NCBI GenBank assembly: GCA_946637865.1 | Contig: CAMPBM010000001.1 | Location: forward strand, 1-59,060 | DNA from: an uncultured Lachnospiraceae bacterium | GTDB lineage: Bacteria > Bacillota > Clostridia > TANB77 > CAG-508 | Reading direction: 5' to 3' | Length of the DNA: 59,060 nucleotides | Position numbers and translations under genes: made by a program | Notes under the pieces: generated by a model | Database searches by the model: none | What the model was told of the DNA's origin: nothing | The model's input: the letters and a program-made list of their open reading frames with translations, nothing else | Shown here: positions 22,352-23,128 of the stretch, piece after piece | Layout of the letters: every line of letters starts with the position of its first letter | Position numbering within the stretch: the first letter of the stretch is position 1

Positions 22352-22500
22352 GTTATTTCCTCCATTTATTTAAATTGTGGAATTAGTATGTACCTCATTT
22401 AAGAGGTGTCTGGACTTTCCAAACTATTTCTATATTGTATGATATTATGTAAAATTTGTCAATAGTTGTATTTATATATTTTTTTCAATTATTTTTAAGA

Positions 22501-22661
22501 GTTACAGTTCAGGTGCCCATAATGTTGATGAAATATATTAATACGAAGTGGAGTGCGCAGTTTGGCGCTCCCACCTAACGTCTTTTTCACATATCATAGC
22601 GCCAGCAAACGAACGGAGTATTAATATATTTCATCAACATTATGGGCACCTGAATTGTAAC
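22501..22661 (+). mobile_element. 161-nt hairpin MITE, family B (GTTACAG termini)
   Basis: 44-nt arms complementary with one mismatch, and a 73-nt asymmetric centre. 8-bp direct duplication TTTTAAGA at 22493-22500 and 22662-22669. Confidence 0.9.
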
Positions 22662-22663
22662 TT

Positions 22664-23128
22664 TTAAGACTCCCCTTTTGAACTACCAAAAAAACCTAAA
22701 ATCTTCCTAAAAATTTTCTTATACCATTTTTCTTCTTTCTTCACAATCAATTGAGTATTCTCTTCACCATTTTTATCCAAATCAGTTGATTCCTCACTCA
22801 CGTTCTTGGCATCCTTCTTAAAAATATTTTCATAACTCTTTTCCTCTTTAGCAAGTGCCTCCTTGTCCGCTTCTTTTAACTCATCTCTAGCTGAATCGCT
22901 TATAAAAAAATCCCTATAAATCAATGACAAAATAGCTTTTGTTTCTGGTAGCATCCCAACTGTATTAAGATGCTCCTTAGTTACAACATAATCCTCATCC
23001 ATATTATCTTTAATTAACTTAATGAACGCAGTAGGAATTAATTCATATAACCCTTTATCTAGACTATTTAATATAAAAATCACTTCCGAAAAAGCCCTTG
23101 AATATTTAGAATCTGTATTAATCATCAT
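22664..23128 (-). CDS. Hypothetical protein (154 aa), translationally coupled to the upstream 407-aa gene
   Basis: ATGA start/stop overlap with 23125-24348. Helical N-half and a Lys/Glu-rich tail. Confidence 0.5.
   Translation of the reverse strand: MMINTDSKYSRAFSEVIFILNSLDKGLYELIPTAFIKLIKDNMDEDYVVTKEHLNTVGMLPETKAILSLIYRDFFISDSARDELKEADKEALAKEEKSYENIFKKDAKNVSEESTDLDKNGEENTQLIVKKEEKWYKKIFRKILGFFGSSKGES

Follow-up and report, generated by a model that had tools for sequence, protein, structure and literature searches.

A 161-nt hairpin MITE with 8-bp target-site duplications and IS66-type ends in an uncultured clostridial genome

A hairpin element across the stop codon of a 154-aa gene

The window analysed here is a stretch of 59,060 nucleotides from a metagenome bin (G000; 1.6 Mb, 126 contigs, 30% G+C, 77% complete). 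Within it, a 161-nt element that we designate MITE-A lies between a promoter-like site and the end of a 154-aa gene (Table 1). Reading the letters directly and running a repeat finder both led to this unit at 22501-22661, and the structure described for it in the original prediction is present in full, namely two 44-nt arms (22501-22544 and 22618-22661) that differ by one G/A mismatch and enclose a 73-nt non-palindromic centre (22545-22617). The arms are complementary except at element position 7, where the G at 22507 stands opposite the T at 22655; this reads as G/A when arm is compared with arm and as a G-T pair on the + strand. As was also predicted, the octamer TTTTAAGA occurs as a perfect direct repeat immediately on both sides of the element (22493-22500 and 22662-22669). 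The neighbouring bases, inward as well as outward, are not the same at the two copies; the duplication is therefore exactly 8 bp long, and the reservation that the flanking 8-mers might be part of a longer pre-existing repeat is ruled out. The repeat finder gave an arm length of 50 nt only because the octamer contains a palindromic TTAA.

The 154-aa ORF (22664-23128, minus strand) is a real gene, with homologues at 64% identity and below. Its TAA stop (22664-22666) falls within the right-hand TTTTAAGA, which agrees with the original claim that the insertion went across the stop codon and left the ORF unchanged: one undisturbed octamer would supply an identical stop codon, so the insertion made no change to the gene. 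On the opposite side, the promoter-like site (22434-22462) lies 38 nt beyond MITE-A and was left intact. MITE-A itself has no coding capacity; the only overlapping ORF of at least 40 aa is one of 40 aa (22456-22578) that begins in the left flank.

Table 1. Coordinates of MITE-A, related elements and adjoining features in the window
Feature	Positions	Strand	Remarks
Promoter-like TTGACA-17-TACAAT for the downstream 123-aa ORF (21980-22351)	22434..22462	-	11/12 consensus positions; consensus match only
Left target-site duplication TTTTAAGA	22493..22500		identical to 22662-22669
MITE-A, non-coding hairpin transposon	22501..22661	+	orientation set by the asymmetric centre
Left terminal inverted repeat GTTACAGTTCAGGTGCCCA, likely transposase recognition end	22501..22519	+	matches each end of the 1914-nt IS66-family element on L216-L222 without mismatch over 18-19 nt
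Asymmetric centre, 73 nt	22545..22617	+	with the inner arms (element positions 29-133), forms the core ~90% common to the 225-nt MITE-B
Right terminal inverted repeat, inward GTTACAATTCAGGTGCCCA	22643..22661	-	one G-to-A difference at position 7
Right target-site duplication TTTTAAGA	22662..22669		includes the TAA stop of the gene upstream
154-aa ORF of unknown function	22664..23128	-	TAA stop in the duplicated target; same protein in a second assembly, where the MITE occupies this site too
274-nt member of the terminus family	34194..34467		duplication GTACGCTG
63-nt mini-element, GTTACAGGTCAGCC ends	37032..37094		duplication AAAAAATA
Second MITE-A copy, 162 nt with one extra G	49859..50020	+	duplication GAAACTAC at 49851-49858 and 50021-50028

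The 161-nt element is predicted to fold into an extremely stable hairpin, both as RNA (-87 kcal/mol, z = -14.9) and as DNA (-50.3 kcal/mol, z = -13.4), and in neither case was any of 200 shuffled sequences as good. Such a fold, placed directly after a stop codon, with all of its copies intergenic and with arms that co-vary between subfamilies, might be taken for a primarily functional RNA or transcript-end structure (a stabiliser, a terminator or a small RNA) whose repetition is secondary. We regard this reading as very improbable. Complementary arms are expected of a foldback MITE, a search of Rfam over 21500-23500 gave nothing relevant and no match for MITE-A, and no U-tract follows the hairpin on the strand of the gene; moreover, the hairpin copies point either way with respect to the genes beside them, and their presence varies between near-identical strains. 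A side effect of the hairpin on transcripts is possible.

Copies of MITE-A, empty sites and a wider family of ends

A genome-wide count, which had been proposed as a check on the original prediction, found at least 27 copies of MITE-A in G000, 15 of them full-length (96-100% identity) and ~12 more cut by contig ends. Four copies are identical to the window copy and seven differ from it by one base. The copies were located by similarity alone and their flanks were read afterwards. Perfect 8-bp duplications border 12 of the 15 full-length copies, each of a different sequence (chance expectation ~5e-5 per copy, estimated from base composition), while at the remaining three the duplication is offset or carries one mismatch. 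All 15 full-length copies are intergenic, between ORFs, and no target consensus beyond AT-richness was found among the MITE-A insertion sites. At the second copy in the window, the stop codon of an 880-aa ORF (50025-52667, minus strand) again falls within the duplication.

Movement of the element could be read from a sister copy on another contig of G000 (C41), where CATAGAACAAT is followed by MITE-A (5520-5680) and then by TTGAACAAT GGTTACTGG, with a duplication that fits at 7/8 or 8/9 bases. The orthologous site is empty in three independent assemblies of one strain (L132, from a Logan run, and two ENA assemblies, L133 and L134, all from sheep-rumen samples), which read CATAGAACAAT GGTTACTGG with a single AGAACAAT and without the element, in flanks 99.5-99.7% identical to those of G000. 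Empty sites of a paralogous kind were also seen: several MITE-A copies lie within the ends of MITE-B, a 225-nt relative, and their flanks, when joined with one octamer, are colinear with intact MITE-B ends. The reverse situation occurs in another strain (L117 and L120, flanks ~97% identical), in which unique flank runs straight into MITE-A at a place where G000 is uninterrupted; these filled alleles were seen from one side only. The expectation of an empty site in related strains was therefore borne out for the sister copy and for paralogous positions, but not at 22501-22661, where no empty allele was found in any assembly reaching the site and where the copy is present in L045, also from sheep rumen, and in the 96.5%-identical L091. 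The flanking DNA in 40 related species genomes is too diverged to show an empty site, a 153-aa form of the flanking protein led to the filled site only, and plasmid and phage collections gave no match. MITE-A is recently active, and insertion polymorphisms between near-identical strains could be used as strain markers.

One further candidate for an empty site, L140 (compared with G000 C27:14621-14848), was rejected, as it lacks a 206-nt stretch that begins within MITE-A and reaches the end of a neighbouring mini MITE-B; this variant is a deletion between nested elements, with the join at an ATAAC microhomology. At two other places (L076 against G000 C4:22430, and L077 against G000 C122:3048) one side of the comparison carries MITE-A and the other carries a 283-nt relative, MITE-C, at the same flank junction. 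These swaps are possibly replacements of one family member by another or assembly-graph artefacts, and because the first 15 nt are common to both families we set them aside as possible artefacts.

The first 12-15 bases of MITE-A are common to other non-coding elements of 41-283 nt, with the consensus end GTTAC(A/T)G(G/T)T(C/T)A, and 29 family members in this size range have a perfect 8-bp duplication. Among them, MITE-B has GTTACTGTTTAACA ends and shares the core (element positions 29-133) with MITE-A at ~90%, MITE-C breaks the assembly at ~25 contig ends, and minimal shells of 58-100 nt carry GTTACAGGTCAGCC ends. The terminal 14-mer has 148 exact matches in G000 (against 0 for the reversed control), and 15 in G001, 4 in G016 and 0-1 in each of the remaining 27 genomes of the genus; the copies in G001 and G016 are likewise MITEs with 8-bp duplications, with other cargo. 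When one mismatch to a 13-nt terminal motif was allowed, 393 ends were counted in the 1.6 Mb of G000. Of 24 same-genus species genomes, 6 contain the core common to MITE-A and MITE-B. The window's contig breaks off inside MITE-C arms at both ends (1-74 and 59006-59060).

Insertions frequently land in or beside resident ends of this family. An end-like family 9-mer lies within 36 nt at 8 of 15 reconstructed empty sites, compared with 8% of random positions across the whole genome, and in several cases the duplicated octamer corresponds to positions 2-9 of the end of a resident element or abuts it. The transposase may be attracted to its own ends, and selection for harmless sites could contribute to this pattern.

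A single-gene IS66-type element with the same ends

Duplications of 8 bp are a known trait of the IS66 family. A scan for GTTACAGTTCAGGTGSYNWW in one genome per species revealed an autonomous element in an uncultured Clostridia bin (L152:2772-4683), 1912 nt long, which has GTTACAGTTCAGGTG ends and is flanked by a perfect duplication, TAAAAAGA. A frameshift in an A-run interrupts its ORF, and its protein matches DDE_Tnp_IS66 (PF03050, E = 2e-20) and has an N-terminal DUF6444 region; against the NCBIfam model of IS66 transposases (NF033517) it scores E = 9e-37 and 127 bits, which is below the equivalog cut-off of 180. In a protein database, 931 relatives were found at E below 1e-20, many of them intact at 519 aa and encoded on ~1.9-kb contigs, and the PF03050 matches of the IS66-type transposases (E = 2e-20 to 3e-23) lie above the gathering score. 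Two of these proteins (P0033 and P0036) were traced to 15 contigs from human-gut, cattle-rumen and other samples. Each of the elements is 1913-1914 nt long and has a single 519-aa ORF between inverted repeats of 18-19 bp, GTTACAGTTCAGGTGCCC or GTTACAGTTCAGGTGCTCA; one copy (L223) has a 7/8 duplication, and several of the contigs consist of the element alone. The left end of MITE-A is identical to these insertion-sequence ends over 18-19 bases, and only those terminal bases are in common. The suggestion to compare the termini with IS families that make 8-bp duplications thus led to an IS66-family element with the same terminal bases. Both insertion-sequence copies found in bins are frameshifted near an A-run, at different places (the L152:3299-3312 region, and element positions ~764-831 of L194); decay, homopolymer error or programmed frameshifting could account for the split transposases.

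A second IS66-type element was found on a JGI contig (L103, Ga0326512_10043385, ~1408-3322). It is ~1915 nt long, encodes a 512-aa transposase (PF03050, E = 2e-17), is 34% identical to the first element and has MITE-B ends (GTTACTGTTTAACACTTTT) over 19 bases. It sits between a MITE-C end and an ISAs1-like element, and no matching duplication was seen for it, probably because of this nesting. This contig was returned by a scan of metagenomes with a 20-mer specific to MITE-A and MITE-C, which yielded no autonomous copy with those ends; that negative is explained by the divergence of the insertion-sequence ends after base 16-19.

In RecN identity to G000, the two bins with the insertion sequence (54-55%) fall below members of the genus (65-74%) and above another family of the order (47%), so that its hosts are kin of G000 at about the family level. 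Searches of G000 and of 30 genomes of the genus yielded no IS66-type transposase with these ends, and a search of 201 genomes of the order gave no close copy of the insertion sequence. Absence from bins is weak evidence, because a 1.9-kb insertion sequence assembles as stand-alone contigs, which are easily lost at binning; the smallest G000 contig measures 2.76 kb, which suggests a binning length cut-off. The apparent lack of a transposase in these bins is likely to have this origin.

The 161-nt unit is shorter than ~500 bp and non-coding, and it has terminal inverted repeats, fixed-length duplications, dispersed copies, empty sites and an autonomous relative (elsewhere). We conclude that it is very probably a non-autonomous MITE mobilised in trans by a single-gene IS66-family insertion sequence. 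By this mechanism the transposase would bind the GTTACAGTTCAGGTG ends, the ends would be joined to a target whose strands are cut 8 bp apart, and filling of the gaps would duplicate the 8 bp. For the window copy, the target would have spanned the TAA of the 154-aa gene, so that the duplication rebuilt the stop and the gene came to no harm; the survival of copies only in intergenic DNA would reflect selection. Points against an IS66 parentage are the GTTAC start, the lack of accessory tnpA and tnpB, the imperfect duplications at 3 of the 15 copies and the indirect link of the insertion sequence to this species.

Classic members of the family carry three genes, and their ends, for example GTAAGCGTCCGG or, in Pseudomonas, GTAACCGTCCGGGCA, begin with GTAAGCG or GTAACCG (PMC12888890). 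The autonomous relatives of MITE-A resemble the IS66 family in the DDE_Tnp_IS66 domain with DUF6444, in the 8-bp duplications and in inverted repeats of 18-19 bp. Aligned with the Pseudomonas end, GTTACAGTTCAGGTG matches at 9/15 positions (PMC12888890), with a similar pattern (GT.AC.GT.C.GG) and a start that is not canonical. The relatives differ from the classic members in that their ends start with GTTAC, not GTAAG or GTAAC, and in having a single 519-aa ORF in 1.9 kb without the tnpA-tnpB-tnpC organisation. We take this single-ORF arrangement of the 1.9-kb element to be that of the ISBst12-like subgroup of IS66. In G000 itself, there is a 129-aa relic of a classic IS66-type transposase (C118:211-597, minus strand), close to a GTAAGCAC end; it has no relation to the GTTAC-ended family.

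An 8-bp duplication alone does not tell IS66 apart from the other DDE families that make one, and MITE-A could in principle be mobilised by IS6, IS256, ISL3, IS1595, ISAs1 or IS1; the MITE-B ends resemble IS6-family ends by eye, and ISAs1-like ends occur at contig ends of G000 and in L103. The exact 18-19-nt ends, however, are common only to IS66-type elements, the ISAs1-like elements that were seen have unrelated ends, and Pfam searches of five MITE-bearing genomes per family found no transposase of IS6, IS1595, ISL3, DDE_Tnp_1, IS256, IS1 or DDE_Tnp_1_3 and were also negative for DDE_Tnp_1_6 and DDE_3 in MITE-bearing genomes (the searches, all negative or irrelevant in outcome, also took in IS1182-type, IS982-type and IS630-type transposases, IS66, rve, ISLre2, PDDEXK_2 and Y1). 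A parent from one of these other families therefore has little chance of being correct, and we retain the IS66-type parent.

Several other candidates were considered and set aside. The rve matches comprised only an IS3 element in G024, and UPF0236/ISLre2 occurred only in G003 and G024, with other ends. PDDEXK_2 (Rpn-like) proteins are common, with up to 11 copies per genome, and are not flanked by GTTAC ends. Of the 30 genomes in the genus, 20 encode Y1_Tnp proteins (~250-260 aa; e.g. G001:C5:26445-26774 and G015:C3:159133-159465), which do not track the GTTAC ends. Long pairs of ends in G000, tried as autonomous copies, enclose ordinary genes, and among the ORFs beside 137 solitary ends in G000 none is repeated or transposase-like. 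The ISAs1-like inverted repeats in G000 lie mostly at contig ends (C9:31731-31783, C117:3186-3238 and C64:9-58), with no DDE_Tnp_1 gene assembled there, and similar repeats lie in L103 (reverse complement, 2019-2071 and 3187-3239). A different ISAs1-family element lies in another bin (L046:3600-4720), just downstream of a 64%-identical homologue of the 154-aa gene.

Comparison with other bacterial repeats and a possible second layer

Among known short repeats, the Correia/NEMIS elements of Neisseria, RUP of pneumococcus, MITEAba12 of Acinetobacter and Nezha of cyanobacteria are, like MITE-A, short and non-coding, with terminal inverted repeats, site-specific duplications, many near-identical intergenic copies, a transposase acting in trans and a long hairpin. 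Correia and RUP duplicate TA, and MITEAba12 duplicates 9 bp. MITE-A differs from these four in its IS66-type parent and its duplication length, in belonging to a very dense family with many cargo variants behind one 12-15-nt end, and in landing frequently in or beside resident ends. It is a well-supported but ordinary mobile element and, for general genome biology, an unexceptional instance of a known phenomenon; its abundance, end-directed nesting and possible two-layer architecture give it moderate interest. With this work, a transposase family can be named for an abundant repeat family that breaks assemblies in gut and rumen Clostridia with small genomes, and MITE derivatives of single-gene IS66-type elements are documented.

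A different comparison is that with REP and REPIN sequences, which are GTAG-tagged palindromes associated with RAYT transposases (PMC3733652). If MITE-A were such a palindrome, it would have moved as single-stranded DNA by means of a Y1 transposase (RAYT or IS200/IS605-like), and some features of its relatives recall this: the core lies in long hairpin modules in MITE-B and MITE-C, GAGTAG directly precedes the stem (5' side) in all copies of both and in those seen in relatives, a module of this kind differs in presence, without a duplication, between G000 (C41:5722-5942) and L132-L134, and the genus is well supplied with the Y1_Tnp proteins noted above. MITE-A itself has no GTAG tag next to its arms and is not REPIN-like; it has IS66-type inverted repeats, and single-strand Y1 transposition makes no duplications of the kind found at 12 of its 15 full-length copies, nor do these reflect a pre-existing target motif, as they all differ. 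Y1_Tnp also had no match in G000. We judge this the least probable of the alternatives, and very remote. The original statement, that the element is a transposed MITE and not a REP-type sequence, is supported; the copy number, the site-specific duplications, the empty sites and the IS66-family ends all speak for it.

The REP-like features of MITE-B and MITE-C may have an origin of their own. Next to the polymorphic MITE-A on C41, G000 carries a 279-nt element (5691-5969) where L132-L134 have a 58-nt shell (GTTACTGGTCAGCCATTATTACTGAGTAG / CCCAAGGCTGAACTGTAAC; at ~1960-2020 in L132 and L133, and also seen in L134). The extra 221 nt consist of a hairpin module with the conserved core and a CGG...GCAAAAG box; they lie directly after GAGTAG, and their absence leaves neither a duplication nor a scar. 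This looks like a GTAG-targeted insertion or a precise excision without duplication, as in REP/RAYT or IS200/IS605-type elements. Tentatively, and with somewhat more doubt than belief, we suggest a composite of two layers, in which IS66-type MITE shells (DDE, 8-bp duplications) would offer a GAGTAG site and a second, independently mobile hairpin module (stem, core, stem and CGG...GCAAAAG box) would insert there without duplication, in the manner of a Y1/RAYT-type single-strand element, the 161-nt element being a palindromised descendant of this chimera. If true, one repeat would have been spread by two unrelated transposition systems.
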